A DNA stretch of 64,000 nt from an uncultured Candidatus Actinomarina sp. (GCA_902521955.1 CABYTP010000003.1:5910-69909); one strand, 5' to 3'. Shown: positions 10,763 to 23,055, numbered from the stretch's first letter. The notes: generated by a model not told the origin, from the sequence alone. Numbers and translations are program-made.

Positions 10763-11038
10763 CTAATTCTTTGGGACTCTTGCTGCTTTAAGTAAATTTC
10801 CGTTTTCATCAATTAAACCACATCTCTTTGAGATTAATTTTGGATTAAATGCGAAAAGATTTTTTCTCCAAGTTGCTATGTACCCATAACCTCCAACTTC
10901 ATCAAGCCTAGACAATGCCTCGCCTAGCTCTTTTGAAGACTCTGCTACAACAACTGGTAAAGAATCATACAGAGCATCCCACTCCTCAGACTCCTGAACT
11001 TTAGATGAAGTAAGGAGTGTTTTTAATATGCTACTCAT
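10763..11038 (-). CDS. hypothetical protein, last gene of the mtl/HPr operon
   Basis: 91 aa ORF whose start overlaps the ptsH stop by 8 nt. No motif recognised. Confidence 0.4.
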   Translation of the reverse strand: MSSILKTLLTSSKVQESEEWDALYDSLPVVVAESSKELGEALSRLDEVGGYGYIATWRKNLFAFNPKLISKRCGLIDENGNLLKAARVPKN

Positions 11039-11318
11039 TATTATCTAAAAGCTGTTCAAACCTAATTAAAAAACTTTCCTCGTCATCTCCATCCAAAACT
11101 AGAGTAAATGGTTTATCTTTAGCTATCCCTAAACTTAAGATTCCTATCATGCTCTTTCCATCTTTTTCAACTATTTCTTCTTCTCCAGTTTCTTTATTTA
11201 CTTTTGGAAATTTTACTGCCACAGTTCCATTAAACTCTTGCGCTAATTTTACAAATAAACTTGCAGGTCGAGCATGTAGACCAACTTCATCTTTTACAAC
11301 TAATTCTTTTTCAATCAT
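11031..11318 (-). CDS. ptsH: phosphocarrier protein HPr
   Basis: 95 aa. VGLHARPAS contains the His-15 phosphorylation motif. GKSMIGILSLG resembles the Ser-46 region. Confidence 0.85.
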   Translation of the reverse strand: MIEKELVVKDEVGLHARPASLFVKLAQEFNGTVAVKFPKVNKETGEEEIVEKDGKSMIGILSLGIAKDKPFTLVLDGDDEESFLIRFEQLLDNNE

Positions 11319-12398
11319 CTAACCTCCAAGCTTTTCAATGTATCTATCACTATAGTCTTCAAGCTCCCAAAATTCCTTATAAAATTTCTCTCTTCCGATA
11401 GATATGTGATCTTTACGGAATTGGTCATACCCATCAATGTCTGAAAAACTATTTTCAAATATAATATCTAGGATTTCTTTAAAAGAACTTACATCGCTAT
11501 TATTTGCTATCAATGTGCGAAGTGGATACTCAAATCGTTCATCTTTAGAGAACTTTATTTCTGGATTTCTACAAATTCGATTAACTTCATCCTTTATAAG
11601 AGAAAGGGAGAAACGCTCAATAATTAGGTTAGTGAAACTTTCATGATCCAAGTCTTGATTTGTGAATAGGTTAAAAGCAGTGCTTAATTGTGAGACTGTT
11701 TCTTTTGCGAATGCAACTCCTACGTCTTTATCTAAGATTTCATGAATAAAATTAATATTGTTAGACTTTGCAAAATATGCCAATTGTAAGTGAAGTCCGT
11801 TAAGCAACCATAATTTTTTATAAAACTCATTATCATAATTTTTATAATTAACAACATCTGATTTTTTTAAAGGCCTGCCTTCAGAGTCTTCATCAAGGAT
11901 AATTGATCCATATTTTTCAACAGTCACACTTAAAGATTGCGTAATTTGGGGGGGGACTATTTTATCAACTACTGCATCTATAACTTCTAAATTAGAATTC
12001 AATTTATCAACCTTGTTACTTGATGTACTGGAAGCTCTATACATATTTTCAAAAGCAACAAATATTTGGTTTCGATCATTATCTAGCTCTGCAACTTTTT
12101 GATAAATATCTTTTACAAATTTAGGACCAACAGAAGTGGAAATCATATCTGCATCTAGTAAAGCTGCTTTAAGTTCACCTGTGCTGGCTAAATCTATAGC
12201 TGTGATATTAGAGACAATGTTAATATCACTACTATTCGCATTGATTGATGTAACTCTGTAACTTTTTTCAGAATTAATTAAATTTACAAGTTCTTTATTT
12301 ACATCGATAAAAATAACTTCATAATCATTTTCAAAAAGTATAGGTGCAATAAATCCTCTACCTATATTTCCAGCACCAAAGTGAACAGCAAGCTTCAT
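11319..12398 (-). CDS. mtlD: mannitol-1-phosphate 5-dehydrogenase
   Basis: N-terminal KLAVHFGAGNIGRGFI is the MtlD Rossmann signature. About 360 aa, immediately downstream of the mannitol PTS genes. Confidence 0.85.
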   Translation of the reverse strand: MKLAVHFGAGNIGRGFIAPILFENDYEVIFIDVNKELVNLINSEKSYRVTSINANSSDINIVSNITAIDLASTGELKAALLDADMISTSVGPKFVKDIYQKVAELDNDRNQIFVAFENMYRASSTSSNKVDKLNSNLEVIDAVVDKIVPPQITQSLSVTVEKYGSIILDEDSEGRPLKKSDVVNYKNYDNEFYKKLWLLNGLHLQLAYFAKSNNINFIHEILDKDVGVAFAKETVSQLSTAFNLFTNQDLDHESFTNLIIERFSLSLIKDEVNRICRNPEIKFSKDERFEYPLRTLIANNSDVSSFKEILDIIFENSFSDIDGYDQFRKDHISIGREKFYKEFWELEDYSDRYIEKLGG

Positions 12399-12838
12399 AG
12401 TGATTGAGATAGTAAATTAAAAATATTTTCAACCGATGTTTCTTGCCAAAGTTTCTTAGCATCGTCTTCATCTTCAATAGCGTCGGCAAGGGCGGCAAGA
12501 ACATTCATGTGTTCATCGGAATTTGCAGCAATCCCAACTATTATAAAAGCCATCTCCTCTCCCCATGAAACACCCTCTGGAACCTGAATAACACTGATTC
12601 CAGTATGTAGAACGTGAACTGAACCAGATGACATACCGTGAGGAATAGCAACACCATTCCCAATAAATGTTGCGAATAATTGAGTATCTAACTTTTCAAG
12701 CATAGAGTCAATGTATTCTTTTTCGATATACCCGTTTTCAAAAAGAAGCTGTCCTGAAGCAATGGTGGCTTCCTCTTTTGTTTTAAAATCTCTGTTTGTT
12801 GAAATTGAATCTACCAACAATACTTTTTTTTGACTCAT
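12395..12838 (-). CDS. PTS EIIA component, mannitol/fructose (EIIA-2) type
   Basis: 147 aa with GNGVAIPHG, the active-site His motif of PTS_EIIA_2. Confidence 0.8.
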   Translation of the reverse strand: MSQKKVLLVDSISTNRDFKTKEEATIASGQLLFENGYIEKEYIDSMLEKLDTQLFATFIGNGVAIPHGMSSGSVHVLHTGISVIQVPEGVSWGEEMAFIIVGIAANSDEHMNVLAALADAIEDEDDAKKLWQETSVENIFNLLSQSL

Positions 12839-13155
12839 GTAGAGGTTATTTCATTACCCTCTGATAAATCAGTAATTAATTTTTTAAGTGCTGGGTCATT
12901 CATGAACATCATAAACTGGATGACCACAGCATTTTCTGGTGCTGCAGCTTTTGCAGCAGCTGCTAGGCCTGTATGACAAACGACTATATCTGAATCAGCT
13001 GGTATCTGAGTAGCTGGTGCATGAACGATTTCAACATCTAAACCAGCTTTCTTGGCTTTTTTAACTAGGCCATTCTTTACCATTAAGCTTGAACCAGCTC
13101 CAGCTTCACAAGCTAAACATATCTTTTTTACTTCTGCTCCGTTAATTGAACTCAT
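12835..13155 (-). CDS. PTS EIIB component, mannitol type
   Basis: KKICLACEAGAGSSLM carries the EIIB active-site Cys. I place the start at the ATG at 13155, 5 nt after a GGAGG Shine-Dalgarno. The track start at 13203 lies inside the upstream hairpin. Confidence 0.75.
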   Translation of the reverse strand: MSSINGAEVKKICLACEAGAGSSLMVKNGLVKKAKKAGLDVEIVHAPATQIPADSDIVVCHTGLAAAAKAAAPENAVVIQFMMFMNDPALKKLITDLSEGNEITST

Positions 13156-13164
13156 AATTCCTCC

Positions 13165-13203
13165 AAAAAAAAATTGACTTGGGAATTTTACTTCCCAAGT
13201 CAA
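13165..13203 (-). terminator. intra-operon intrinsic-terminator-like hairpin between mannitol EIIC and EIIB
   Basis: Perfect 12 bp stem TTGACTTGGGAA/TTCCCAAGTCAA (13174-13185 and 13192-13203) with a 6 nt loop. On the transcribed minus strand it is followed by a run of 9 U (13165-13173), then GGAGG and the EIIB ATG. Confidence 0.55.
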
Positions 13204-13223
13204 TTATAACTTAATAGTTTTAA

Positions 13224-14285
13224 TTAAACAGTTGGTATGTTGCTTTCAATTACGGCATCAACACCTGCATCTGTTTCTTTAATTGGACGTGCTCTTAGCA
13301 AGATAACACCAACAACTGCTGATGCTGCTGTAGCAATTGCTACACCTGCTAATACTGGGAACGCCCCACCTTTCGGAAGCATTGCTATATAAGCAAAAAT
13401 ACTTCCTGGTGACGGAGGTCCTACTAAACCTGCACCGGTTGCTACGAACCATAGGTCAGCAGAAATTCCTCCAGCCCACATTGCGATGATCATAATTGGA
13501 TGACCAAGGACATATGGGAAATAAATTTCATGTATTCCTCCAAAGAAGTGAATAATGATTGAGCCTGGTGCGGATTCTTTCCACATACCAGTACCGGCAA
13601 ACCAGTAAGCCAAAAGTAGACCTAAACCAGGACCTGGATTAGTCTCCAAAAGGAAATAAATTGATTGACCTGCTTCTGCAGACTCAGCTGCTCCAAGAGG
13701 TGTTAACACACCTTGGTTTACAGCATTGTTCAAGAACAATACCTTCGCAACTTCAATTGGAATGTCAGCTAGTGGCACTAGACCGCTGTCTACTAACCAA
13801 GCTGCACCGTTACCTAATGCATTTGTTATTGCATCAAGTACTGGGCTAATTACATTATAAGCAACGACTGCTAAGCCCCAACCTAGAATACCGAGAGAGA
13901 AGTTATCATATAACATCTCAAATCCCTCAGGTACACTATCTTGTACTCTGTCGTCAACTTGCTTCATGATCCAAGCTGCTAATGGACCCATTACCATAGC
14001 ACCTAAGAACTGTGGTGAGGAAGTAGCAACAATAATAGCTGTTGTTACAACTGCACCAATAACTCCACCTCTATGACCATGTACCATCTTTCCACCTGTG
14101 TAACCTAACAAAAGTGGTAATAAGGTAACAATCATAGGACCAACCATGGATGACAAATCTTCATTTGGCAGCCAACCAGTTGGAATGTAGAGTGCTGTAA
14201 TTAAACCCCAAGCGATAAAAGCACCAATGTTAGGAATAACCATTCCTGACATAGCACCGCCAACGCGTTGTATGGATTCTTTCAT
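13224..14285 (-). CDS. mtlA: PTS EIIC component, mannitol-specific
   Basis: 353 aa polytopic membrane protein. IPNIGAFIAWG and GGIHEIYFPYVL match the MtlA EIIC domain. Confidence 0.85.
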   Translation of the reverse strand: MKESIQRVGGAMSGMVIPNIGAFIAWGLITALYIPTGWLPNEDLSSMVGPMIVTLLPLLLGYTGGKMVHGHRGGVIGAVVTTAIIVATSSPQFLGAMVMGPLAAWIMKQVDDRVQDSVPEGFEMLYDNFSLGILGWGLAVVAYNVISPVLDAITNALGNGAAWLVDSGLVPLADIPIEVAKVLFLNNAVNQGVLTPLGAAESAEAGQSIYFLLETNPGPGLGLLLAYWFAGTGMWKESAPGSIIIHFFGGIHEIYFPYVLGHPIMIIAMWAGGISADLWFVATGAGLVGPPSPGSIFAYIAMLPKGGAFPVLAGVAIATAASAVVGVILLRARPIKETDAGVDAVIESNIPTV

Positions 14286-14450: not shown

Positions 14451-14834
14451 ATGAAAAATTTACTATATCTTCTTATTGGAATTGGGTTTTTAGCAATTAT
14501 CTCAAGTAGTGCTTCAGGTTTTTTAACTTCCGAAACCAGCAGTACACTAGATGGACTTTATGAAGAAAGTTTTTATATTGATCCTGAAAATATTGAAATA
14601 AGTGATGATGTAGTAAAGATTTATCTTTTACAAATTAATAAAAATAATGGCGAAAAAAAAGTAAATGATTGTCTGAATTTTTATAGTTCTGAATATGAAA
14701 ACTACAAAATTGAATGCTCTATCTCAGTAAATGAAAATATAGCATTTGATGATGAGTGTGTTTTCATAACAGGAGTTTTTATAAAAGAAGAAGAAAAAGA
14801 TGTAGTTACTATTGTGAAAGATAACTCTTGTTAG
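14451..14834 (+). CDS. hypothetical secreted protein
   Basis: 127 aa with an N-terminal signal-like helix (LLYLLIGIGFLAIISSSASG). It is the only plus-strand gene between the two minus-strand PTS operons. No motif recognised. Confidence 0.4.
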   Translation: MKNLLYLLIGIGFLAIISSSASGFLTSETSSTLDGLYEESFYIDPENIEISDDVVKIYLLQINKNNGEKKVNDCLNFYSSEYENYKIECSISVNENIAFDDECVFITGVFIKEEEKDVVTIVKDNSC

Positions 14835-14837
14835 TAA

Positions 14838-15110
14838 TTAATCAAAAATAGAACCAAGTAAACTATCCTCTTCTGTTTCTATCTCGGCTACAGGTTCTCC
14901 AACATTAACCATGTCTCCTTCATTAGCAATTAAATTTATAATCTCGCCAGAGTAAGGGGATTCAAGATCCATATCTACCTTATCTGTTGAAATCTCACAA
15001 ATGACATCTCCTTTATTAACTTTGTCACCGATAGAAACTTTCCAAGATAGTAACTCTGCCTCTGACATTTGATCAGACATAGCTGGTAGCAGGATATTTT
15101 CTTTGGCCAT
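14838..15110 (-). CDS. stand-alone lipoyl-attachment domain protein (E2-like lipoyl domain only)
   Basis: 90 aa. CEISTDKVDMDLESPYSGEI matches the lipoyl-lysine motif (E.DKA..E..S...G). There is no E2 catalytic or subunit-binding domain. Confidence 0.75.
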   Translation of the reverse strand: MAKENILLPAMSDQMSEAELLSWKVSIGDKVNKGDVICEISTDKVDMDLESPYSGEIINLIANEGDMVNVGEPVAEIETEEDSLLGSIFD

Positions 15111-15116
15111 ATTAAT

Positions 15117-16115
15117 TTATACCATATCTTTAATAGCTTGCATAATGTCTTCCTTTTGAGGGATAACTGTTGTTTCTAAATGTTTTGCAGAGGGCATTGG
15201 TGAATGAAGTCCTGAAACTAACTTGGGAGCAATAGAAAGACTAGAGAATGCATCGCTCTGAACAACATTAGAAATTACAGTACTTCCAACTGAGCTGTTT
15301 GCAGGAGCTTCTTGGCAAACAAGAAGCTTCTTTGTCTTTGAAACTGAAGTAATTATGGTTTCCATATCCAGAGGGGAAAGAGTTTGAAGATCAATGAGTT
15401 CTGCAGAGATTTCAGATAGCTCATCAGAGGAAATTGCATCCTTTACAACATTCACCATGTTTGAATAAGAGACAATAGTAATATCATTTCCTTCAGATAA
15501 AATTTTTGCCTGACCAAGAAGCTCAGAATTACTTGGAATGTTATTTAAAACTACATCATCTTTAATTTTATAAATTAATTTATGTTCCATAAATATTACT
15601 GGATTTGGATCAACAAAAGAATGCAAAAGCAAATCATATGCATTTTGTGGGTTTGACGGTGTAACAACTTTCAAACCTGGAACATGACAAAACCAAGACT
15701 CTAAAGACTGGCTATGTTGTGCAGCAGCTCCTGTCCCAGCACCACTAGCGCCCCTAACAACAATGGGTACATTGACTGCGCCACCATACATAAAATGAAG
15801 TTTTGCGGCTTGATTAACAATTGGATCCATCGCATTTACAATAAAATCACTGAACTGCATCTCTACAATAGGTTTTGAGTCTGTCATGGCAGCACCTACT
15901 GCTAAACCAGCTATTACATCTTCAGCTATAGGTGTATCTTTTATTCTCTCTTCTCCAAAAGTTTCTAATAATCCATCAGTAACTCCAAATGCACCACCGT
16001 AGATTCCTATATCTTCACCTGCTATGAAAGCATTTGGATATTCTTTAAGAATTAGTGAGAGTGCATTGTTGATTGCCTGCCCAACAGAAAGCTCAGGCAT
16101 AAGAGTCCTCCTCAA
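15117..16115 (-). CDS. TPP-dependent 2-oxoacid/acetoin dehydrogenase E1 component, beta subunit
   Basis: 332 aa. AINNAL ... GEDIG.YGGAFGVT ... RIKDTPIAE ... GLKVV.PS are typical E1-beta (transketolase Pyr and C-terminal domains). The start may be the internal MPELSV (16100). Confidence 0.85.
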   Translation of the reverse strand: MRRTLMPELSVGQAINNALSLILKEYPNAFIAGEDIGIYGGAFGVTDGLLETFGEERIKDTPIAEDVIAGLAVGAAMTDSKPIVEMQFSDFIVNAMDPIVNQAAKLHFMYGGAVNVPIVVRGASGAGTGAAAQHSQSLESWFCHVPGLKVVTPSNPQNAYDLLLHSFVDPNPVIFMEHKLIYKIKDDVVLNNIPSNSELLGQAKILSEGNDITIVSYSNMVNVVKDAISSDELSEISAELIDLQTLSPLDMETIITSVSKTKKLLVCQEAPANSSVGSTVISNVVQSDAFSSLSIAPKLVSGLHSPMPSAKHLETTVIPQKEDIMQAIKDMV

Positions 16116-17052
16116 GATTAGTGACGGGACTTAGTGGAGAGTCTAAAGCTTTCTTTACTGAAGTTCTTATTGTGTTTTTTACTTCTTCATCAATTTCTTT
16201 TAAATCTACTTCTGTAATGCCTTGTTCAAGAAGTTTTCCAATATATCTTTTAATTGGATCTTTTTCATCCTTCCAGAAATTTATTTCCTCACTTGTCCTG
16301 TATAAATTACGATCAGACTTTGAGTGTCCCCTATACCGATATGTAACAGCTTCAATAAATTTTGGTCTATTATTACTTAATATTTCATCTTTAAAAGTGG
16401 CTACACTTTCATAAACAGCCTCAACATCATTACCATCAATTTGAATACTTTCAATACCGTATGAGTTTCCTCGTGATGCAATTGATTCCCCGGCAACTGC
16501 TTTTTCTGAAGCCATAGACATTCCGTATTGATTATTCTCACATAAAAAAAGTACAGGAAGGTTCCATAATGAAGCTAAGTTAAGTGCTTCGTGAAATGAT
16601 CCCTCATTTACAGCTCCGTCACCAAAGAAACATAAAACTATATTTTCTTTCTTTTGTAACTGAAATGAAAGAGCTGCTCCAACAGATATGGTTAAACTTC
16701 CTGCAACTATACCATTGGCACCAAGATTTCCGTTTGATAAATCAGCAATGTGCATGGAGCCTCCACGACCTCTACAATATCCGTCTTCACGTCCTAAAAG
16801 CTCAGCAAACATTTTATATGGATCCGCACCCTTGCCTAAACAATGGCCATGTCCTCTATGGGTTGAAGTTATTAAGTCTTTTTTATCTAATGCGAGACAT
16901 GCACCAGCTGCTGTTGCTTCTTGTCCTATGGAGAGATGCATTGTTCCATGCAGTAGGCCGCGAGAAAACATTTCCTCTAATGCTTCTTCAAACAATCTTA
17001 TTAGCATCATCATTCGATGAAGTTCTAATTGGGTATCTTTGGTTACTGACAT
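16093..17052 (-). CDS. TPP-dependent 2-oxoacid/acetoin dehydrogenase E1 component, alpha subunit
   Basis: 319 aa. HLSIGQEA, YRGHGH, GDGAVNEG (TPP-binding GDG-x-NEG) and YRYRGHS motifs. Confidence 0.85.
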   Translation of the reverse strand: MSVTKDTQLELHRMMMLIRLFEEALEEMFSRGLLHGTMHLSIGQEATAAGACLALDKKDLITSTHRGHGHCLGKGADPYKMFAELLGREDGYCRGRGGSMHIADLSNGNLGANGIVAGSLTISVGAALSFQLQKKENIVLCFFGDGAVNEGSFHEALNLASLWNLPVLFLCENNQYGMSMASEKAVAGESIASRGNSYGIESIQIDGNDVEAVYESVATFKDEILSNNRPKFIEAVTYRYRGHSKSDRNLYRTSEEINFWKDEKDPIKRYIGKLLEQGITEVDLKEIDEEVKNTIRTSVKKALDSPLSPVTNLEEDSYA

Positions 17053-17062
17053 TAATTTCTAT

Positions 17063-18316
17063 TTAACTATTATCTTGTAATTTTCGTAAATTGTTAATTA
17101 AATTTTTTGGAAGGTTTACATCATCAAAGGTAATTGGGTCACCTTGTTTTATATCGTTTACTACTTCCGCACCCTCAAGAAGACCTAATGGAACTAAATT
17201 CTCAGCTTCACTAACTGGATAAGTTACGCCGTATGAATTAAATCCACCAATCCCATCTACAACTTCACCTTTACTTAAATCTTTTTTTGCATGTCCTACT
17301 ACTTCAGCTATCCATGTCGTAGGTTGTAGTCCCGGTTCTTGGTTGATGATTGCCATACCAATACTTCTTGGTGCCTCTATAGAAGCTAGGTGATATGGTC
17401 TGTAAAAAGTGTAGTAGGGACCTTCACCCATAGAGAGATATTCCATTTCTTCAATAACCGTAGAGTTTTCAGATTTTACAATAGCAAACACACCTGGAGC
17501 TGGTCCAAAAGCATAATCCACTCGTCCTGAACTACTAAGTACACCACCATCTTCTTGAGGTATAAGTATTTTATTTAAATCACTAACTTCACTGACGGGT
17601 CCATTCATCCCGGCTTTATCTGGTGGTAAGTTTATTGCATTTGCAAGAGCGGCCATTTCTATCATTGTCTTAGAACCATCTTCAAAACTAGCTAACATTT
17701 TTGGATTCATTTTTTTCTTAGTTGCTTTTTCTAAACATGAATCTGGGTTAGCAGTTTGATCAAGTGGATTGTTCTTTCCTTTACCCACACAAACAACTTC
17801 AAACCCAAGATCTGTAGAAAAATCATAAAGTTCTTTGCATGCTACAGGTTCATCTCCATTTGCAACACTATAAACTACTCCATTTTCACGTGCTTTATTT
17901 GCAAAATACATACCAATAGTTACATCTGTTTCGACATTTAACATGAGTATATGTTTTTTTGCATCAATACAGGCATTTGCAACTTCTGCGCCAACCCAGG
18001 GAACCCCTGTTGCTTCAAAAACAATATCTACTGGAAGCTCTGCAAGTGCTGATGCGTTATCTACAACACCTCCATTCCCATCTTGAATAGATTTTGCTGC
18101 TTCACTATTGCTTTTAATTATTTCAACTCCTGCTAATGAAAGTGCATTTTCTGCTCTCTTAATATCAATATCTGCACAAGCTACAAGACTCATTCCAGGT
18201 ATTCTGCCAATTTGTGCTGCTAAGCCTGAACCCATCTGTCCAGCACCAGCCAAGCCTACCCTAACTGGTCTTCCTAGTTCTTTTTCTCTTTTAATTAACT
18301 CTTCTGTATAGTTCAT
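17063..18316 (-). CDS. NAD(P)-binding oxidoreductase, homoserine-dehydrogenase-like with SAF-like C-terminus (COG4091-like)
   Basis: 417 aa. N-terminal Rossmann VGLAGAGQMGSGLA. The overall layout resembles the 'predicted homoserine dehydrogenase, SAF domain' family. It sits where srlD would be expected. Confidence 0.5.
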   Translation of the reverse strand: MNYTEELIKREKELGRPVRVGLAGAGQMGSGLAAQIGRIPGMSLVACADIDIKRAENALSLAGVEIIKSNSEAAKSIQDGNGGVVDNASALAELPVDIVFEATGVPWVGAEVANACIDAKKHILMLNVETDVTIGMYFANKARENGVVYSVANGDEPVACKELYDFSTDLGFEVVCVGKGKNNPLDQTANPDSCLEKATKKKMNPKMLASFEDGSKTMIEMAALANAINLPPDKAGMNGPVSEVSDLNKILIPQEDGGVLSSSGRVDYAFGPAPGVFAIVKSENSTVIEEMEYLSMGEGPYYTFYRPYHLASIEAPRSIGMAIINQEPGLQPTTWIAEVVGHAKKDLSKGEVVDGIGGFNSYGVTYPVSEAENLVPLGLLEGAEVVNDIKQGDPITFDDVNLPKNLINNLRKLQDNS

Positions 18317-18672
18317 TGGGTAATTTCTAACCTATCTCCAATTTCAATAACTGGTTTTTTATCATACTTACAACTCACATCCCCAGGTAAAGCTGCTTCT
18401 GTTGCGCTATCAAGCTTTAAAACCAAATGGCCTAGATTTTTAAAATTTTCATTAGCAACAGGTCCAACAGCAGTTACTTCTAAATTTGCATCTGATAAAA
18501 GAATTTTAGATCCAACAATAATCTCTTCCGAAATCTCATTAAGTTTATGAATTACTGCAAAATCTTGTAGCTCTTCTGGAGCATTATCACCAAAAAAGAC
18601 AACTATTCCTTCATCTAAAAATAAACTTGCCTGGTCACCTATTCGGACTATTTCAGAAGAATAGATGTGCAT
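18313..18672 (-). CDS. srlB: PTS EIIA component, glucitol/sorbitol-specific
   Basis: 119 aa. I could align it to E. coli SrlB over its full length (IVRIG ... APEEL ... VTAVGPVANENFKNLGHLVLK vs VTAVGSVAEDNLRELGHVTLR). Confidence 0.8.
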   Translation of the reverse strand: MHIYSSEIVRIGDQASLFLDEGIVVFFGDNAPEELQDFAVIHKLNEISEEIIVGSKILLSDANLEVTAVGPVANENFKNLGHLVLKLDSATEAALPGDVSCKYDKKPVIEIGDRLEITQ

Positions 18673-19049
18673 TAAGCTTCTGTTACTTGATCCTCAGATA
18701 CGCCTGAAACAAAGTTTTCTTCCTTAATAAACTGTGCAAGAGGGCCGGCAGGCGTCGTATCATGTATGTCAATTGTAGGAACGCCTTTCATTGGATAAAC
18801 CCCAATTCTTGCTGTTCCACCACAATCAATAACAGCGCATGCCATTGCTTTAAAACTTCCTTCTGGTGATGATTTAAAACCATCAAATGCCTCTGCACCT
18901 GTTAAGTCAGCGATCTTTTGTGCTACTGGGTGTATACCTCCACCTGTAATGCAAACAATATATTTTCTTTCATCTGTTGGTTGGATTTCTAAAGGACCGC
19001 CCCAGCCACTCTTTCCTGCTTCTACTTTAACTTTTTTATAATCTGCCAT
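18672..19049 (-). CDS. PTS EIIB domain protein, glucitol family (equivalent to SrlE N-terminal domain)
   Basis: 125 aa. GKSGWGGPLEI ... AVIDCGGTARIGVYP ... PTIDIH ... GPLAQFI parallels SrlE residues GTGGWGGPLEL ... AVIDCGGTLRCGIYP ... PTINIH ... GPLAQYI. Confidence 0.8.
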   Translation of the reverse strand: MADYKKVKVEAGKSGWGGPLEIQPTDERKYIVCITGGGIHPVAQKIADLTGAEAFDGFKSSPEGSFKAMACAVIDCGGTARIGVYPMKGVPTIDIHDTTPAGPLAQFIKEENFVSGVSEDQVTEA

Positions 19050-19066
19050 TTATTCTCCTTAAAATT

Positions 19067-19098
19067 TGTAACGCTCTGATTTTACACAGAGCGTTACA
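19067..19098 (-). other. intra-operon 12 bp hairpin between glucitol EIIC2 and EIIB genes
   Basis: TGTAACGCTCTG (19067-19078) and CAGAGCGTTACA (19087-19098) form a perfect stem with an 8 nt loop. On the minus strand it is followed by AAUUUU and then the AAGGAG RBS of the EIIB gene. Confidence 0.5.
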
Positions 19099-19124
19099 TT
19101 CTTAACAATTGTTAAATTAAATCT

Positions 19125-19649
19125 TTACAACCCTAATGCAAACAAATAACCAACAACTACTGAGATTGGTCCAGTAATCATTCTGCTTGTCAGAACTGCT
19201 GGAACACCAATCGTAACTGTCTCAGGTTCAGCTTCACCTAGTGCTAATCCTACAGGAACAAAGTCACAACCAACTTGTGGGTTGATTGCAAACAATGCTG
19301 GAAGTGCCATTGAAACATCAATGTTTCCACGACCAATTTCTGTACCGATTAAAACACCCACAATTTGGGCAATAACAGCACCTGGTCCCAATAATGGTGA
19401 CAGGACTGGAATTGCACAAATGATACAAACTATCATCAATCCACCCAAACTGCTGGAAAAACCTTTTATTCCATTAGCAATAGCATCACCGACACCGGTT
19501 TCCAAAATCAAACCAATGACGAATGTTACGAATGCCATGAAAGGAATAATTGTTTTTAGACATAGATCAACTGCATCACGACCTGCTTGAAACAATGTTC
19601 CAACCACGCCACCAACTGACCTACCTATTTTTTCTATTAATGCTTGCAT
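19125..19649 (-). CDS. PTS EIIC2 membrane domain protein, glucitol family (equivalent to SrlE C-terminal domain)
   Basis: 174 aa. PFMAFV ... SPLLGPGAVIAQ ... ALPALFAINPQVGCDFVPVGLALGEAEPETV is near-identical in pattern to the C-terminal half of E. coli SrlE. Confidence 0.75.
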   Translation of the reverse strand: MQALIEKIGRSVGGVVGTLFQAGRDAVDLCLKTIIPFMAFVTFVIGLILETGVGDAIANGIKGFSSSLGGLMIVCIICAIPVLSPLLGPGAVIAQIVGVLIGTEIGRGNIDVSMALPALFAINPQVGCDFVPVGLALGEAEPETVTIGVPAVLTSRMITGPISVVVGYLFALGL

Positions 19650-20191
19650 TATTCGACACCCGCCTTTCTTGCTGCCATAATGTTATAAATAATGTCAGTG
19701 ACAATACCTCTAATCAAAATAACTACAAGACCAGCAAGTAGGTAACGAACTGCTAAAGCAGTAACCATGTCAGGTGCAACAATCTCTACACCTGCAGCAA
19801 TGCCTAACCATACGAACAACTCTCCACCATTTGCATGTGGAAATATTCCCGTAATTGGATGTACAAAGCTGACTGCTGAATCATAAAATGCCGGTTTGTG
19901 CTTTTCTGGCAAAAATGTACCGAATGTATAACAAACTGGGTTAGTTAACATAAACACAGCAACAAACGGTAAAAGAGTATACCTTACAGGCATGTATGCC
20001 CATCCTTCTTGAGAAGCCCATTTTGCAAACCCCTCTACTCTTTCTTCACCAATAAACTTGACCAAAGCATTTACTGCGGTCAAGAACACTACCACAATTG
20101 GAATAATTCCAGTTGTGAATCCCACAAATACGTCAGCAGCGGTTCTAAATACTTGGATAAAGGCTTCTGCGCCATTTACTAAAGCATCCAT
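19649..20191 (-). CDS. srlA: PTS EIIC1 component, glucitol/sorbitol-specific
   Basis: 180 aa. GAEAFI ... GIIP ... LPEKHKPAFYD ... FPHANGGELFVWLGIA parallels SrlA (MPEKYKPSYY ... FPHINPGELFVYLGIA). Confidence 0.85.
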   Translation of the reverse strand: MDALVNGAEAFIQVFRTAADVFVGFTTGIIPIVVVFLTAVNALVKFIGEERVEGFAKWASQEGWAYMPVRYTLLPFVAVFMLTNPVCYTFGTFLPEKHKPAFYDSAVSFVHPITGIFPHANGGELFVWLGIAAGVEIVAPDMVTALAVRYLLAGLVVILIRGIVTDIIYNIMAARKAGVE

Positions 20192-20206
20192 TTCTCCCCC
20201 TTTTTA

Positions 20207-20620
20207 CTAACTTATCGAATTACTATCTTTTTTACTTTCAATTCTTTTAATCAAAGTATCAGATGCCATAGAGGCAGCTTCCCAGATAGGTTCGTTTTTA
20301 TCTGAAGTAACAATTTCATGCAAACTCATACCATTGAACAATGTAAGTTTTTTACTTTTTGCAAAAGTAGTAACACCTTCTAGGGTTAGGCCATCAACAA
20401 TAATTGATTCTGCATTAGCTGAAATTGCTATATAGATTTTTTTTCTTCCCCATTTAGGCTGGTTGACGCCAATGGCAACTTCAAGATTCGGGCCCTTAAT
20501 GCTGTTAACTGCATTAAGAAAGCTCGTAGCTTGTTTTTTTGCTAGATACATTTGTAATACCCACATCAAGGCAAGAGTTACAAATATTATGCCTATGGCA
20601 TAAGGTGAATCTAGCACCAT
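20207..20620 (-). CDS. gutM: GutM-like glucitol operon activator
   Basis: 137 aa. N-terminal TM helix, then ... GRKKIYIAISANAESIIVDGLTLEGVTTFAK, which resembles GutM (PRVVVAIALDDQQRIVDTLFMKGLTVFAR). Sits directly upstream of srlA. Confidence 0.55.
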   Translation of the reverse strand: MVLDSPYAIGIIFVTLALMWVLQMYLAKKQATSFLNAVNSIKGPNLEVAIGVNQPKWGRKKIYIAISANAESIIVDGLTLEGVTTFAKSKKLTLFNGMSLHEIVTSDKNEPIWEAASMASDTLIKRIESKKDSNSIS

Positions 20621-20745: not shown

Positions 20746-21426
20746 TTAAATCATAGTTTCGAGTTTGAAAATATCCTCGATGAAAGTTACTTTCATATTT
20801 CTTGGGTCTCCTGGTATCACAACTGCCTCAAGTTCTGAATATTTAGATACACACTCGGTAGTATCTACGGCTTGCCAATTATCTAGCTTTGCAAGTTCAT
20901 AAGATTTCCACAATTCTGAAGCTGGAAATATTTGAGGTGTTTGTATTTCAACAATAGTTTCTTGTTTTGTATCGCTATTTAAATTATCTTTTTTCATAAG
21001 ATTTTCTGAATTAAATCCTGGTGCAGATGCTCCATATTTAGTTGCTACATCAATTAGTTCATCTAGTAAATATATAGGAAGAAGCGGTCTTGCTCCATCA
21101 TGTATTAATATTAAATCCTCTTCATCTACATCTTCTCTTTCTTTTAAATTTGCTAAACCTTGGTATTCACTTTCGTGCCTAGTATTTCCTCCAACTGCAA
21201 CCCCTGCGAGCTTTTTTGGATTTGTTAGTTCGATAACATTGTTTGTTTTGTCCCAGTCTTCATCTCGAACAACTAATAATATTGAGTCTACTTTCTCAGA
21301 CTGATCTAGAGTTTCTAAAGCCCACGAGAGCGCTGGCTTGCCTCCAATAGGAAAGTAAACTTTATTTTCTTCATTGTTAAACCTATCACTGGATCCACCA
21401 GCTAATAAGATTGCATGTACTTTCAA
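20746..21426 (-). CDS. IspD/TarI-family sugar-alcohol-phosphate cytidylyltransferase
   Basis: 226 aa. AILLAGGSSDRF ... K.Y..IGGKP and IHDGARP motifs of the IspD/TarI nucleotidyltransferase family. The start overlaps the ptsI stop by 4 nt. Confidence 0.75.
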   Translation of the reverse strand: MKVHAILLAGGSSDRFNNEENKVYFPIGGKPALSWALETLDQSEKVDSILLVVRDEDWDKTNNVIELTNPKKLAGVAVGGNTRHESEYQGLANLKEREDVDEEDLILIHDGARPLLPIYLLDELIDVATKYGASAPGFNSENLMKKDNLNSDTKQETIVEIQTPQIFPASELWKSYELAKLDNWQAVDTTECVSKYSELEAVVIPGDPRNMKVTFIEDIFKLETMI

Positions 21427-23055
21427 AGTATGTCTTCCTTTATTAGAAGCGTTACCTCTTCAGCATTATTCGCAGATAGCATTTTGTCTACAAATTTTTC
21501 TGGAATGTTATCAGAATTCTCTTCTAGAATTTCAAAAACAAAAGGAGCCGCAGCTGGTGACATACTAAATGTCCTTAAACCTAAAATATACAACGCCAAA
21601 GCTGAAATGGGATCTGATGCCATTTCACCACAGACAGAAACTTCAATTTTATTTTTTCTACAATTATTTATAACTTCTGAAATTGCTCGGAGTACAGCTG
21701 GGTGAAGTGGGTTTTGATATTTACTAAGATTACTATTACCTCTGTCAGCAGCCATTATGTACTGTGTTAAATCATTTGTACCAATTGAAATAAAATCTAC
21801 AACTTCTGAAAACTGATCTGACATTAATGCTGATGATGGTGTTTCAACCATTATCCCTAATGGCGGAGTTTTTTAAATTAAGCTCTTCGGCAATTTCATT
21901 TACATAATTTTTAGCATCTAAAAAATCTTCTATTGTAGATACCATAGGAAACATAACTTTAACCCTATCAATACAGTCTGATTCTAAAATTGATCTAACT
22001 TGTGAATGGAAAATATCCTTATTCTGAAGTGATAATCTTATACCCCTAACTCCCAAAAATGGATTTTCTTCAACTGGTAAATTTAAATGCTTTACCTGCT
22101 TATCACCACCTATATCCAGCGTTCTGTATACAATTGTTCCTTTAAATTTTTCTGAAAGTTCAGATAGTACTTTTTTTTGGTCTTCAAATGTTGGTGGGCT
22201 TTGCCTATCTAAATAAATAAACTCTGACCTAAATAGGCCTATTGAATCTAAGAATAAATGTTCAAAATTATTGATTTCTTCTGAGGAGCCGACATTAATT
22301 CTGAAATCAATTCCTAATTTCTCATATTTATCTTTAGTAAAGTTGCTAATTACTAAATTAATATTTTCTGATTTTCTTTTAAGTTCTGAAATTATTTCCT
22401 CTGAAGGAGAAAAGATAACCTCTCCACTTTCTCCATCTATTGCGATTTCAGTTCCTGTTGATATATCATTTACGGACTCTTTAAGACCAATTACGCAGGG
22501 GATTCCTAAGTTTTTGGCAACAATTACAGCATGGGAAGTGAAACCACCTTCTTTTAAAATAATGCCCGAGACTTTATTTAAGTCCATGGATGATGTATCA
22601 GCAGGGGTCAAATCATTAGCGATTAGAATAGTATTCTCCTCAAATGTTGTAGATATATCCTTATCCTGCATTGCAAAAATAAGATGCTTTCCAACTGAAA
22701 TAATATCTTCTGATCTTTGCTTAAAATAATCATCCTCCATGGAGTCAAAGATTGATGCTGTAGATGAAAAGACTTCAAATACTTTTTCAGTTGAAATGTC
22801 AGAGTTCACATCAAACTGGTTTGTGATTTCAGGATCTTCTAGAATCAAGATATAAGCATCAAGTACTTCGGCCTCATCAATCCTATCTTTAGATTTAAAA
22901 GATTCAATCTGTTTCTTAAACCTTTTAATCAAATTAGATTTAGCTACCTCAAAAGAAATACTCATAGGACTTTCGAAATTTATTTCATTTTCATATATAT
23001 ATGAACTACCTATAGCTATTCCTATTGAAGCGCCTAGACCTTTAACACTTGTCAT
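21423..23055 (-). pseudogene. ptsI: PTS enzyme I (ptsI) interrupted by a +1 frameshift in an A6 run
   Basis: The N-terminal 403 aa ORF (GGFTSHAVIVAKNLGIPCVIG, active-site His) and the C-terminal 142 aa ORF (IGTNDLTQY, CGEMASDP) are in different frames. Deleting one base of the homopolymer at 21869-21874 gives LNLKTPPLGIMVETPSS, a continuous EI. Confidence 0.8.

Follow-up and report, generated by a model that had tools for sequence, protein, structure and literature searches.

An operon of the abundant marine bacterium Candidatus Actinomarina is read here, with about even confidence, as a system for the uptake and cleavage of a polyol, whose substrate would most likely be 2-C-methyl-D-erythritol (ME) rather than glucitol, with methylerythritol 4-phosphate (MEP) passing via DXP to glyceraldehyde 3-phosphate (GAP) and acetyl-lipoyl. 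The operon occupies positions 14838-20620 on the minus strand of the 64-kb stretch of DNA that was analysed (the window) and consists of nine co-directional ORFs, most of them overlapping, as obtained by ORF calling and by Pfam and NCBIfam profiles. The coordinates of the initial annotation are correct, and the profiles back every one of its assignments. The gene content, the family membership of the proteins, the conservation of the module among relatives and the decay of its E2 component were observed directly; all features described below lie on the minus strand.

The Gut-family transporter and its neighbours

The first gene of the operon encodes a GutM-like operon activator of 137 aa (20207..20620; PF06923, E 2.1e-15), and GutM was also found in the clusters of relatives. 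The SrlA-like Gut-family PTS EIIC (180 aa, 19649..20191; PF03608, 1.6e-66) is 42% identical to E. coli SrlA and passes the NCBIfam SrlA equivalog model with 207 bits vs a cut-off of 150. The special feature of the transporter, already recognized in the initial annotation, is a SrlE that is split into two genes of swapped order, the membrane half (EIIC2, 174 aa, 19125..19649), which matches only positions 158-329 of the SrlE profile, preceding the EIIB half (125 aa, 18672..19049), which matches only positions 1-118. The former shares 52% identity with the C-terminal half of E. coli SrlE, the latter 48% with its N-terminus, including the IDCGGT cysteine motif. The SrlB-like Gut-family EIIA (119 aa, 18313..18672; PF03829, 1.3e-31) is 36% identical to its E. 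coli counterpart. By ORF coordinates three junctions overlap, namely SrlA/SrlE membrane half (1 base between start and stop), SrlE EIIB half/SrlB, and SrlB/oxidoreductase (4 bp at the SrlB stop). The split and swapped SrlE is common to Actinomarina, Nitriliruptoraceae and freshwater acI-like Actinobacteria, and a fused SrlE is retained in other carriers of the same cluster.

The transporter families (SrlA, both SrlE halves, SrlB, GutM) are those of the E. coli srlAEBD-gutM system (TC 4.A.4, Gut family), and, as for the latter, the Actinomarina transporter is expected to take up a polyol at the expense of PEP and to deliver it in phosphorylated form. E. coli SrlE is fused, however, whereas the two Actinomarina genes lack the linker of roughly 30 residues. 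Furthermore, unlike the E. coli operon, the cluster is devoid of an SDR-type SrlD, SrlR and GutQ, and its downstream enzymes (DXR-II, E1 alpha/beta, lipoyl protein) are different. The earlier statement that another set of enzymes takes the place of SrlD holds, with no SDR-type SrlD in the operon 14838-20620.

The upstream ispD gene and the general PTS proteins, which the earlier reading had left aside, belong to the picture of the system. Directly upstream lies a protein of the IspD (MEP cytidylyltransferase) family (226 aa, 20746..21426; PF01128, 9.8e-35), which reaches 141 bits, below the NCBIfam ispD equivalog cut-off of 181; its best PDB matches are IspD enzymes. PTS enzyme I (21423..23055) is split into two ORFs of 403 aa and 142 aa by a 1-bp frameshift, due to an additional A in a run of A near 21850, and is intact, with 547-558 aa, in nine relatives. 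HPr, the general PTS phosphocarrier, is encoded by the last ORF of the adjacent mannitol PTS operon (11031..11318), and in most other lineages the cluster has an HPr homologue next to it.

The oxidoreductase and the E1 pair

The enzyme that follows SrlB is an NAD(P)-dependent reductoisomerase-like oxidoreductase of 417 aa (17063..18316; PF21135, 5.6e-63). It had been described as a homoserine-dehydrogenase-like/SAF protein; the SAF domain is indeed present, and the family can be refined to DXR-II/DRL. PF21135 is the 'Oxidoreductase DRL catalytic domain' of Pfam, and the Brucella abortus DRL structures (PDB 3upy, 3upl) match the protein over its full length (E 3.6e-99), with the same domain order and an SAF-like C-terminal domain. 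Neighbour-joining trees built with few landmark sequences place it within the DXR-II clade, separate from a listed DLO2 member and other homologues. From the set of DXR-II signature residues compiled in PMC3847144, 22 of 24 are identical, including K191, K193 and T229, which anchor the phosphonate in DXR-II (PMC3847144). The fosmidomycin/phosphate-anchoring and dimer-interface residues of Brucella DRL are likewise conserved; global identity is only about 42%, and H250 is replaced by Asn. By these sequence criteria the protein is a member of the DXR-II/DRL family, and its activity is predicted from this membership. DXR activity was reported for 11 of 11 tested members of the clade, which contained no Actinobacteria in the 2013 survey. 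The initial annotation could not name a pathway for this set of enzymes; the set is real, and because the oxidoreductase belongs to DXR-II/DRL, the pathway now has a testable name.

The TPP-dependent E1 pair of acetoin-/pyruvate-dehydrogenase type is confirmed by PF00676 for E1 alpha (319 aa, 16093..17052; 1.4e-80) and by PF02779 and PF02780 for E1 beta (332 aa, 15117..16115), the two genes overlapping by 23 bp. E1 alpha remains under the cut-off of TIGR03182 (350 bits), and E1 beta passes that of an NCBIfam PDH E1 beta subfamily. In comparison with human PDH, the catalytic GHS histidine of E1 alpha and the catalytic Glu and His (AQHSQ) of E1 beta are conserved, and with these three residues kept the enzyme is predicted to be competent for lipoyl acylation. 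In this respect it resembles AcoABCL and the heterotetrameric PDH E1, TPP enzymes with conserved catalytic residues and a lipoyl acceptor. One should recall that AcoAB converts acetoin, a methyl alpha-hydroxyketone, into acetyl-lipoyl and an aldehyde; the chemistry proposed for the Actinomarina E1 is the same. Unlike the acetoin dehydrogenase system, Actinomarina has neither E2 core nor E3 in the window. Moreover, E1 alpha shares 47-62% identity with its counterparts adjoining DXR-II in other phyla, and the DXR-II-linked E1s share polar-for-hydrophobic replacements vs AcoC-type paralogues and human PDH. They form a group which, unlike AcoABCL, is tied to DXR-II and SorC-type sugar-phosphate regulators and carries polar substitutions in the active region; a sugar phosphate (DXP) is proposed as the substrate of the Actinomarina enzyme.

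Conservation of the module and reduction of its E2

The set of DXR-II, E1 alpha/beta and E2, often with E3 as well, is found in Actinobacteria, Firmicutes, rhizobia and Aerophobetes, and the uptake module varies between carriers (Gut PTS, ABC transporter with PfkB kinase, MFS transporter with FGGY kinase). E1 adjoins DXR-II in 69 of the 80 genome loci, and in 32 plasmid records E1 alpha lies about 100 bp from DXR-II. On Agrobacterium pAt the order is SorC, ABC transporter, PfkB kinase, DXR-II, E1 alpha, E1 beta, E2, E3 and LipA; NGR234, whose gene is a listed DXR-II, has DXR-II, E1 alpha, E1 beta, E2 and E3; Priestia combines an MFS transporter and an FGGY kinase with E1-E3, and the Aerophobetes cluster includes an FGGY kinase. 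The E1 and lipoyl genes thus belong functionally with the oxidoreductase. The initial annotation had considered that they might be a separate unit found in relatives without the PTS; E1/E2 genes without PTS do occur, always beside the same oxidoreductase and another uptake/kinase module, so that they do not represent an unrelated transcription unit.

This bears on a conventional reading, an ordinary sorbitol PTS in which the DXR-II-like protein stands in, as a non-orthologous enzyme, for sorbitol-6-phosphate dehydrogenase and E1 alpha/beta and the lipoyl protein are an unrelated pyruvate/acetoin dehydrogenase located downstream by chance. The PTS proteins do match glucitol/sorbitol models (SrlA above its equivalog cut-off), E1 beta passes the PDH E1 beta subfamily cut-off, the position of the DXR-II-like gene is the one usually taken by gutF/srlD in Firmicute operons, sorbitol uptake is listed in the Actinomarinales genome paper, and the homologous Listeria operon is treated as a sorbitol operon in a Listeria paper. 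Both published annotations, however, are based on homology only, and E1 alpha/beta track DXR-II rather than the PTS, being adjacent to it in rhizobia, Priestia and Aerophobetes in the absence of a Gut PTS. With genes that overlap within a single Actinomarina operon, and a TPP cleavage that fructose-6-phosphate does not need, we regard a sorbitol system as improbable, and the initial doubt that glucitol is the substrate as well founded.

The combination of a transporter, a kinase or PTS, an oxidoreductase and an oxidative TPP complex points to a catabolic route whose oxidised intermediate is barred from entering central metabolism directly, and DXP fits such an intermediate. A link to MEP is supported by operons of a Gut-type PTS and DXR-II in Listeria, Enterococcus and Ligilactobacillus. 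Some contexts leave room for other substrates. In Ligilactobacillus fsa and tkt lie downstream of the PTS and DXR-II-clade gene, an arrangement compatible with a pentulose or hexulose phosphate as product; a rhizobial DXR-II-clade gene, in Phyllobacterium, is accompanied by a sugar ABC transporter and an aldose epimerase, without kinase or E1; and in the Aerophobetes/Clostridia clusters three Zn-dependent polyol dehydrogenases and a xylose-isomerase-like protein are present in addition. The same logic might accordingly apply to another polyol (e.g. a 6-deoxyhexitol, pentitol or tetritol), with the DXR-II-like protein as a plain polyol-phosphate dehydrogenase and E1(/E2/E3) cleaving the ketol phosphate into an acyl unit and an aldehyde phosphate. 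We consider this possible, if rather unlikely: F6P, Xu5P and Ru5P enter central metabolism directly with no need of E1-E2-E3, cleaving them on TPP would yield glycolyl instead of acetyl units, the residues of the DXR-II signature and of phosphate binding are kept, tested members of the clade have DXR activity, and the cluster is flanked by ispD and ispF. As to the latter, 57 of the 80 loci have an IspD gene within the cluster or next to it, and genuine ispD and ispF flank it in several actinobacterial classes despite extensive rearrangement, with carD in several lineages. In Microbacteriaceae the flanking ispD is the housekeeping gene of carD-ispDF, and the adjacency could partly reflect inherited synteny, by insertion at a carD-ispD-ispF locus, rather than functional coupling.

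The last gene of the operon encodes a free-standing lipoyl-domain protein of 90 aa (14838..15110; PF00364, 3.6e-21), which contains ISTDKVDMDLES. As had been claimed, it is a lipoyl domain only, and tblastn of the 64-kb window, with full-length E2 and E3 queries, returned no E2 core, E3 or SorC regulator. Its best NCBIfam match is the acetoin-dehydrogenase E2, matches to GcvH being weak. The gene has exactly 90 codons in all 17 Actinomarinales loci that cover it, so a sequencing artefact is ruled out; a full E2 hidden by a sequencing error, as envisaged in the initial annotation, was found neither there nor in the window. Across the Actinomarinales loci there is hardly any variation in the TDKVDM motif or the EEDSLLGSIFD tail, and a median dN/dS of 0.11 indicates purifying selection. 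When the protein is aligned with the complete E2 encoded in the Nitriliruptoraceae cluster, it covers residues 1-88 of the latter (45% identity). The E2 of relatives has lipoyl, E3-binding and catalytic domains, in some with E3 adjacent; freshwater acI-like lineages retain the E2 core without the catalytic His; in Actinomarinales the core is deleted and the lipoyl domain left. By these alignments, a normal E2 has been reduced to this protein as a derived trait of the lineage, and the idea of a free-standing lipoyl carrier stands for Actinomarinales and fails for the wider system, where relatives carry a full E2. Free lipoyl carriers are familiar from the H protein of glycine cleavage, and in corynebacteria OdhA relies, in trans, on the lipoyl domains carried by the PDH E2. 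In both cases, as in Actinomarina, the lipoyl domain is not covalently joined to its acyltransferase, but unlike GcvH the 90-aa protein is an E2-type domain, the reduced remnant of a dedicated E2.

The conserved lipoyl domain also weighs on a biosynthetic role, in which E1 alpha/beta would substitute for DXP synthase (pyruvate + GAP to DXP), DXR-II would form MEP and IspD CDP-ME, the PTS being a mere neighbour; a streamlined genome would in this way encode the initial three reactions of the MEP pathway. These activities would follow one another in the pathway, the cluster sits in the carD-ispD-ispF locus, some lineages have an operon of only DXR-II and IspD, E2 catalysis has been lost in both streamlined planktonic lineages, and mutants in dxs can be rescued by point mutations in the PDH E1 of E. 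coli (PMC3424233). A carboligase, however, has no need of a lipoyl domain, yet the lipoyl-lysine is kept under purifying selection; most carriers have an intact E2, several with E3 and LipA within the operon; transporter, kinase and sugar-phosphate regulators accompany the module in organisms with a normal MEP pathway; and the enzyme genes are contiguous with the PTS genes in the operon. This role is considered very improbable.

A putative route for methylerythritol breakdown

For methylerythritol breakdown, the reading preferred here, the following sequence can be envisaged, in which we infer the substrate (from protein family and gene context), the direction of DXR-II, the use of DXP by E1 and the service of the lipoyl carrier in trans. 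SrlA, the two-gene SrlE and SrlB, powered by the neighbouring enzyme I and HPr, would import ME and release it as MEP. The latter would constitute a branch point, from which the adjacent IspD could route it to isoprenoid synthesis (salvage), or DXR-II, working in reverse, could convert it to DXP. DXP, a methyl alpha-hydroxyketone like acetoin, would be cleaved by E1 alpha/beta on TPP to glyceraldehyde 3-phosphate and hydroxyethyl-TPP, and oxidative transfer of the hydroxyethyl unit would leave the lipoyl-lysine acetylated. In most carriers the dedicated E2 (sometimes with E3) would produce acetyl-CoA; in Actinomarina the central E2 and E3 would have to take the acetyl group from the dihydrolipoyl carrier and re-oxidise the latter in trans. 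In both Actinomarina and the acI-like lineages, with the E2 core deleted or devoid of its catalytic His, disposal of the acetyl group would depend on a different E2 working in trans.

The proposal presupposes that ME is available in seawater. Related chemistry is found in the LsrK/LsrG/LsrF system, which converts phospho-AI-2, the phosphate of a 1-deoxy five-carbon keto sugar, to triose phosphate and acetyl-CoA and is controlled by a SorC-family regulator responsive to the phosphorylated sugar. The proposed route would likewise split a 1-deoxy keto-sugar phosphate into triose phosphate and acetyl-CoA, with SorC-family regulation, but unlike the Lsr case its enzymes are unrelated (LsrF is thiolase-like, without TPP or lipoyl), and substrate and uptake system differ. 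ME enters Salmonella via the Gut-family (sorbitol) PTS (title of Testa, Cornish and Poulter 2004, cited in PMC3994034), as in the proposed first step; its phosphorylation to MEP on entry would follow from the PTS mechanism. Uptake in Salmonella is a side activity of the sorbitol system, exploited for the experimental rescue of MEP-pathway mutants, whereas in Actinomarina it is proposed as a dedicated function with its own downstream enzymes. A published description of this breakdown system was not found in the literature.

The role described for DXR-II is biosynthetic (DXP to MEP), whereas the Actinomarina context, with PTS and E1/E2, suggests the reverse, catabolic direction. Should Actinomarina have no dxs, classical dxr or second ispD, its DXR-II may simply be the housekeeping DXR. 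The presence of active DXR-II in organisms that also have DXR-I, or that lack any MEP pathway, is a published puzzle; a catabolic role for DXR-II, if true, would account for both situations.

Operon layout and the glucitol-type permease

The sequence belongs to the OCS155 marine Actinobacteria (G+C ≈ 34%), and the same locus was found on a single-cell genome contig at 98% protein identity. Nine genes run from 20620 to 14838 on the minus strand with almost no intergenic space; three junctions overlap by 1-4 bases, and E1 alpha and E1 beta overlap by 23 bp. The genes encode GutM (20207-20620; Pfam/NCBIfam), SrlA/EIIC (19649-20191; PF03608, 1.6e-66), a 174-aa membrane half of SrlE (19125-19649), a 125-aa IIB half of SrlE (18672-19049), SrlB/EIIA (18313-18672; PF03829, 1.3e-31), a 417-aa oxidoreductase (17063-18316; PF21135, 5.6e-63), the alpha (16093-17052) and beta (15117-16115) subunits of a TPP-type E1, and a 90-aa protein (14838-15110) with a lipoyl domain and no other domain. 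All gene assignments of the initial annotation were borne out by Pfam and NCBIfam. Rfam and tRNA scans of the window gave no RNA elements, promoter-like sites were rarer than in shuffled sequence, and the promoter/terminator scan returned no convincing terminator after the lipoyl gene.

SrlA reaches 207 bits against the NCBIfam equivalog cut-off of 150 and is 42% identical to E. coli SrlA. In place of the single SrlE polypeptide of the Gut family (TC 4.A.4), with its N-terminal IIB and C-terminal membrane domains, the window has a split SrlE with the membrane half first, because the match to the SrlE model is confined to positions 158-329 in the 174-aa protein and to positions 1-118 in the 125-aa protein; each half scores under the NCBIfam cut-off for the whole protein. 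The membrane half is 52% and the IIB half 48% identical to E. coli SrlE, whose linker of roughly 30 residues is absent from both, and the IIB cysteine motif IDCGGT aligns with that of E. coli SrlE, as befits a Gut-family member. The split and swapped form is common to Nitriliruptoraceae and acI-like (freshwater actinobacterial) loci, and a fused SrlE occurs in other carriers. A Gut-family permease predicted to be made of four polypeptides instead of three, with permuted gene order, would be of interest for the evolution of PTS permeases. In contrast to the E. coli reference operon, which has srlD, no SDR sorbitol-6-phosphate dehydrogenase (SrlD/GutF) was detected within or adjoining the operon by inspection of ORFs and profile search. 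The published Actinomarina annotation of the operon is "sorbitol uptake", and the Listeria homologue is likewise annotated as a sorbitol operon.

PTS enzyme I (21423-23055) reads as two ORFs of 403 and 142 aa. At their junction (≈ 21844-21853) an A-run has one extra A, TTTAAAAAACTCC versus TTTAAAAACTCC in a 98%-identical relative, and the gene is intact at 547-558 aa in nine related genomes. The likely cause of the frameshift is an error in sequencing or assembling the homopolymer; failing that, it marks a strain-specific pseudogene, which would disable both PTS systems. The second of these, a complete mannitol PTS operon directly downstream (11031-14285, minus strand; seen in ORF translations and tblastn only), comprises EIIC (13224-14285), EIIB (12835-13203), EIIA (12395-12838), a mannitol-1-phosphate dehydrogenase-like protein (11319-12398) and HPr (11031-11318). 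Together, enzyme I, both polyol PTS operons and HPr make up a co-directional "PTS island", the mannitol genes of which are missing at this position in some Actinomarina genomes (compared loci L006-L009). Further away, the plus-strand gene at 5584-7257 encodes a selenocysteine-specific elongation factor of the SelB type (GTP_EFTU and SelB winged-helix domain), which implies that selenoproteins are made from this very small genome.

The DXR-II oxidoreductase and its neighbours

PF21135, found on the 417-aa protein, is the catalytic domain of DRL, the DXP reductoisomerase (DXR)-like enzyme of Brucella, and a full-length match was obtained to the Brucella DRL structures 3upl and 3upy (E 3.6e-99, residues 11-415). 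Carretero-Paulet et al. (2013; PMC3847144) split this family three ways, into DXR-II, DLO1 and DLO2; 11 of the 11 DXR-II members tested complemented a dxr mutant, and complementation failed for all four DLO1/DLO2 proteins tested, which are oxidoreductases of unknown function. In simple neighbour-joining distance trees of a few landmark sequences, the window protein clusters with Brucella, S. fredii NGR234 (listed as DXR-II), Listeria and other Firmicute members; the group excludes Cupriavidus necator N-1 (listed as DLO2), Deinococcus and a haloarchaeal homologue. Of 24 DXR-II positions highlighted in that paper, 22 carry the Brucella DRL residue in the window protein and two differ (H250N, V351I); the set includes K191, K193 and T229, which anchor the substrate, and the dimer contacts E174, F178, R320 and Y322. 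Tree position and signature residues rule out a DLO-type, non-DXR oxidoreductase. The initial annotation, which had seen a homoserine-dehydrogenase-like/SAF oxidoreductase, agrees with the profiles, and the structure match, tree and residues refine it: on these sequence comparisons the protein is a member of the DXR-II family. A DXR-II/DLO homologue that is 36-42% identical adjoins a TRAP transporter on haloarchaeal plasmids, including one of Natronosalvus rutilus (L092); it is devoid of K193 and T229 and lies outside the DXR-II clade.

For the genomic context, 80 genome loci around DXR-II relatives were collected and all window proteins mapped onto them. E1 genes were present in 69 and the Gut PTS in 68, several of the remainder being truncated contigs. 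The full set of Gut PTS, GutM, DXR-II, E1 alpha, E1 beta and lipoyl protein or E2 recurs in Actinomarinales, Nitriliruptoraceae, acI-like Actinobacteria, Pseudonocardiaceae (Amycolatopsis, Prauserella), a Streptomyces, Microbacteriaceae (Salinibacterium, Cryobacterium) and the Firmicute Thermovorax, in widely varying gene order. Elsewhere the front end differs. The Agrobacterium pAt plasmid carries a SorC regulator, an ABC transporter, a PfkB kinase, DXR-II, E1 alpha, E1 beta, E2, E3 and LipA; S. fredii NGR234 has SorC, DXR-II, E1 alpha, E1 beta, E2 and E3; a Priestia plasmid has E1 alpha, E1 beta, E2, E3, SorC, an MFS transporter, a further SorC, DXR-II and an FGGY kinase; and Aerophobetes and Clostridia MAGs have SorC, a xylose-isomerase-like protein, a Zn-dependent dehydrogenase, an FGGY kinase, DXR-II, E1 alpha and E1 beta. 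A plasmid collection added 32 records with E1 alpha ≈ 100 bp from a gene of the DXR-II clade. The Gut PTS and DXR-II occur without E1 in Listeria, Enterococcus raffinosus and Ligilactobacillus salivarius.

The initial annotation had allowed that the E1 and lipoyl genes might prove to be a separate, unrelated unit found without the PTS. E1 without the PTS does occur; in the data compared here, an E1 unit unrelated to the oxidoreductase was never found. Since E1 persists with DXR-II under other uptake systems, the PTS is best regarded as one of several interchangeable front ends, and conservation across the 80 genome loci and the plasmid records rules out a chance juxtaposition of E1 and PTS. 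An ordinary sorbitol operon that happens to be followed by an E1 with no part in it is improbable, for it is DXR-II that E1 follows, not the PTS. Two contexts do not fit neatly and count against over-generalising: in Phyllobacterium the partners of DXR-II are an aldose epimerase and a sugar ABC transporter, and in Ligilactobacillus fsa and tkt lie downstream.

Immediately upstream of the operon, and translationally coupled to enzyme I, is an IspD-family gene (20746-21426, minus strand). Its product matches PF01128 (9.8e-35) and its best PDB matches are IspDs; it lies under the NCBIfam ispD equivalog cut-off (141 vs 181 bits), and ribitol-5-phosphate cytidylyltransferases score nearly as well. 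Of the 80 loci, 57 have an IspD gene within or next to the cluster. Its positional equivalent in Microbacteriaceae is a true, housekeeping IspDF beside carD (Salinibacterium has ispD and ispF fused into one gene, ispDF), and the entire cluster sits between ispF and ispD/carD in Nitriliruptoria and acI-like lineages. The loci with the cluster in or beside the conserved actinobacterial carD-ispD-ispF genes are L040-L047 and L051 (Microbacteriaceae), L020-L025 (Nitriliruptoria) and L061, L068, L071 and L078-L080 (acI-like); in L021 DXR-II is placed between carD and ispD. In several MAGs DXR-II and IspD form a stand-alone two-gene operon. The adjacency outlasts many rearrangements, and inherited synteny may contribute to it. 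Four freshwater actinobacterial loci (L067, L072, L073, L076) contain a further IspD-like gene, divergent and shorter (about 204-217 aa; PF01128 matches it weakly), which runs convergent to the DXR-II/IspD pair, as at 11962-12576 on the minus strand of L073.

The E1 component and the lipoyl protein

The E1 is of the heterotetramer type (PF00676 in alpha, PF02779 and PF02780 in beta). Compared with human E1, the alpha-subunit GHS histidine, the beta-subunit glutamate and the beta-subunit AQHSQ histidine are kept, so that the window E1 retains the residues needed for reductive acylation. When the DXR-II-linked E1s were set against all other E1s, no residues unique to them emerged, because E1s of C. 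difficile and Brevibacillus that are not beside DXR-II group with them. Relative to AcoC-type paralogues and human PDH, the DXR-II-linked E1s show several hydrophobic-to-polar replacements, which are suggestive of a sugar-phosphate substrate, not diagnostic. They also accompany SorC-family sugar-phosphate regulators, company that offers weak evidence in the same direction. The operons of the two outlying E1s (L088, a C. difficile plasmid-labelled record, and L089, Brevibacillus laterosporus) read E1 alpha-E1 beta-E2-E3 with no DXR-II nearby; their E1 alpha is 51-54% identical to that of the window, as close as the DXR-II-linked ones, and both adjoin regulators of the SorC sugar-phosphate type, the Brevibacillus operon also lying next to a different PTS. 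The label "acetoin dehydrogenase" may hide sugar-phosphate substrates more generally in this E1 subgroup.

A regular E2 has three domains: lipoyl, E1/E3-binding and an acyltransferase core with the motif DHRxxDG. The 90-aa protein has the lipoyl domain only, and tblastn of the 64-kb window with two full E2s, one E3 and one SorC disclosed no E2 core, E3 or SorC regulator. The earlier view of a lipoyl-only protein holds, since tblastn of the whole window gives the lipoyl domain alone; a hidden or frameshifted E2 is ruled out by that search together with the 90-aa ORF, which is common to all Actinomarinales. In the 17 Actinomarinales loci that cover the gene it is exactly 90 aa in every case, with a virtually invariant TDKVDM lipoylation motif and acidic tail EEDSLLGSIFD and a median pairwise dN/dS of 0.11. 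On the plus strand, a 127-aa ORF (14451-14834; hydrophobic N-terminus, no Pfam match) runs convergent on the lipoyl gene, 3 bp apart, and fills the space where relatives encode the remainder of E2.

In Nitriliruptoraceae, Pseudonocardiaceae, Microbacteriaceae, Thermovorax, rhizobia and Priestia E1 beta is followed by an ordinary E2 (352-472 aa) that combines a lipoyl, an E3-binding and an acyltransferase domain and carries DHRxxDG as its catalytic motif; E3 adjoins the cluster in Thermovorax, Priestia, Agrobacterium and NGR234. Eight acI-like loci (L059, L063, L064, L068, L071, L072, L076, L080) have an E2 of 342-371 aa that keeps the lipoyl and E3-binding domains and has lost the catalytic histidine, DHRxxDG reading DLRYCDA or DLNFCDF; this resembles a halfway point on the way to the reduced form in Actinomarina. 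By these comparisons the free lipoyl carrier is real, under selection and derived, given its constant length in 17 of 17 loci, its low dN/dS and the full E2 of relatives. The dedicated acyltransferase thus appears to have been given up independently in two genome-streamlined planktonic lineages, E1 and a lipoyl acceptor being kept. The acidic tail of the 90-aa protein corresponds to the start of the linker in full-length relatives. Directly after the lipoyl domain the motif E-[ED]-D-x-L-L-G-x-[IL]-F-D is conserved from the 90-aa protein to full-length actinobacterial E2s (L020-L058) and absent from the acI-like, rhizobial and Firmicute proteins; it may serve in docking.

These features bear on whether the locus could be a biosynthetic trio, with a DXS-like E1, DXR-II and IspD. 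Such a trio is highly improbable in view of the conserved lipoyl domain, the intact E2, E3 and LipA of most carriers, and the context of transporters, kinases and regulators. Whatever the substrate, the locus shows how a multienzyme complex can be pared down, from a full E2 to a dead E2 and on to a 90-aa carrier.

A candidate route for 2-C-methyl-D-erythritol

The combination of a transporter, one phosphorylation, DXR-II and an oxidative TPP/lipoyl complex points to a catabolic route whose oxidised intermediate would be unable to enter central metabolism by itself. If DXR-II acts as its clade does, this intermediate would be deoxyxylulose 5-phosphate (DXP), the phosphorylated substrate MEP (2-C-methyl-D-erythritol 4-phosphate) and the imported compound 2-C-methyl-D-erythritol (ME), which a Gut-family PTS reportedly carries into Salmonella (Testa et al. 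2004). ME would be imported and phosphorylated to MEP, and DXR-II would oxidise MEP to DXP, running the MEP pathway's first committed step backwards. DXP has the form CH3-CO-CHOH-R, the functional group that acetoin dehydrogenase E1 cleaves; by analogy with what is established for AcoAB, E1 would split DXP into glyceraldehyde-3-phosphate and acetyl-lipoyl, the latter giving acetyl-CoA. In Actinomarina the acetylated carrier would need to be served in trans by the central E2 and E3, and the sharing of lipoyl domains between complexes has actinobacterial precedent. The neighbouring IspD suggests salvage into isoprenoids as a second possible fate of imported MEP.

The assignment of the substrate to ME, made from family membership and gene context, stands at about an even chance. 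Another polyol handled by the same logic is rather unlikely. The joint reading, in which DXR-II is primarily catabolic, makes up with a DXP-cleaving E1-E2-E3 an undescribed, widespread pathway for burning (and salvaging) ME, and has the lipoyl carrier of streamlined lineages plug into the central PDH E2/E3, is advanced tentatively, its chances falling somewhat short of even.

Each protein family of the operon is already known. Literature searches on ME catabolism, 2-methyltetrol degradation, DXR-II with PTS or E1, and SAF/gutM yielded no description of the pathway; nor was a description found of DXR-II joined to Aco-like E1-E2-E3 and Gut PTS or kinase front ends, of a catabolic reading of DXR-II, of actinobacterial DXR-II, of a split and permuted SrlE, or of an E2 that shrinks step by step to a free lipoyl carrier. 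The locus is a polyol operon linked to a PTS whose set of downstream enzymes is unprecedented, and the chance that it marks a new pathway is substantial.

Active DXR-II also occurs in bacteria that have DXR-I, in Chloroflexus, which has the mevalonate pathway only, and in Finegoldia, which has neither pathway (PMC3847144), the redundancy being a puzzle restated in a 2026 review. A catabolic role, if true, would explain the presence of DXR-II beside DXR-I or without the MEP pathway, and would address the question of its patchy distribution. Cultured relatives with the same cluster are Salinibacterium, Cryobacterium, Amycolatopsis, Agrobacterium and S. fredii NGR234. The proposed pathway would constitute a new route for a five-carbon branched polyol and extend acetoin-cleavage chemistry to a sugar phosphate, and its carriers would be soil rhizobia, Firmicutes and planktonic Actinobacteria that rank among the most abundant. 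Candidatus Actinomarina is among the most abundant and most streamlined bacteria of the surface ocean, and the pathway, if true, would point to overflow metabolites of the MEP pathway as a marine carbon currency.
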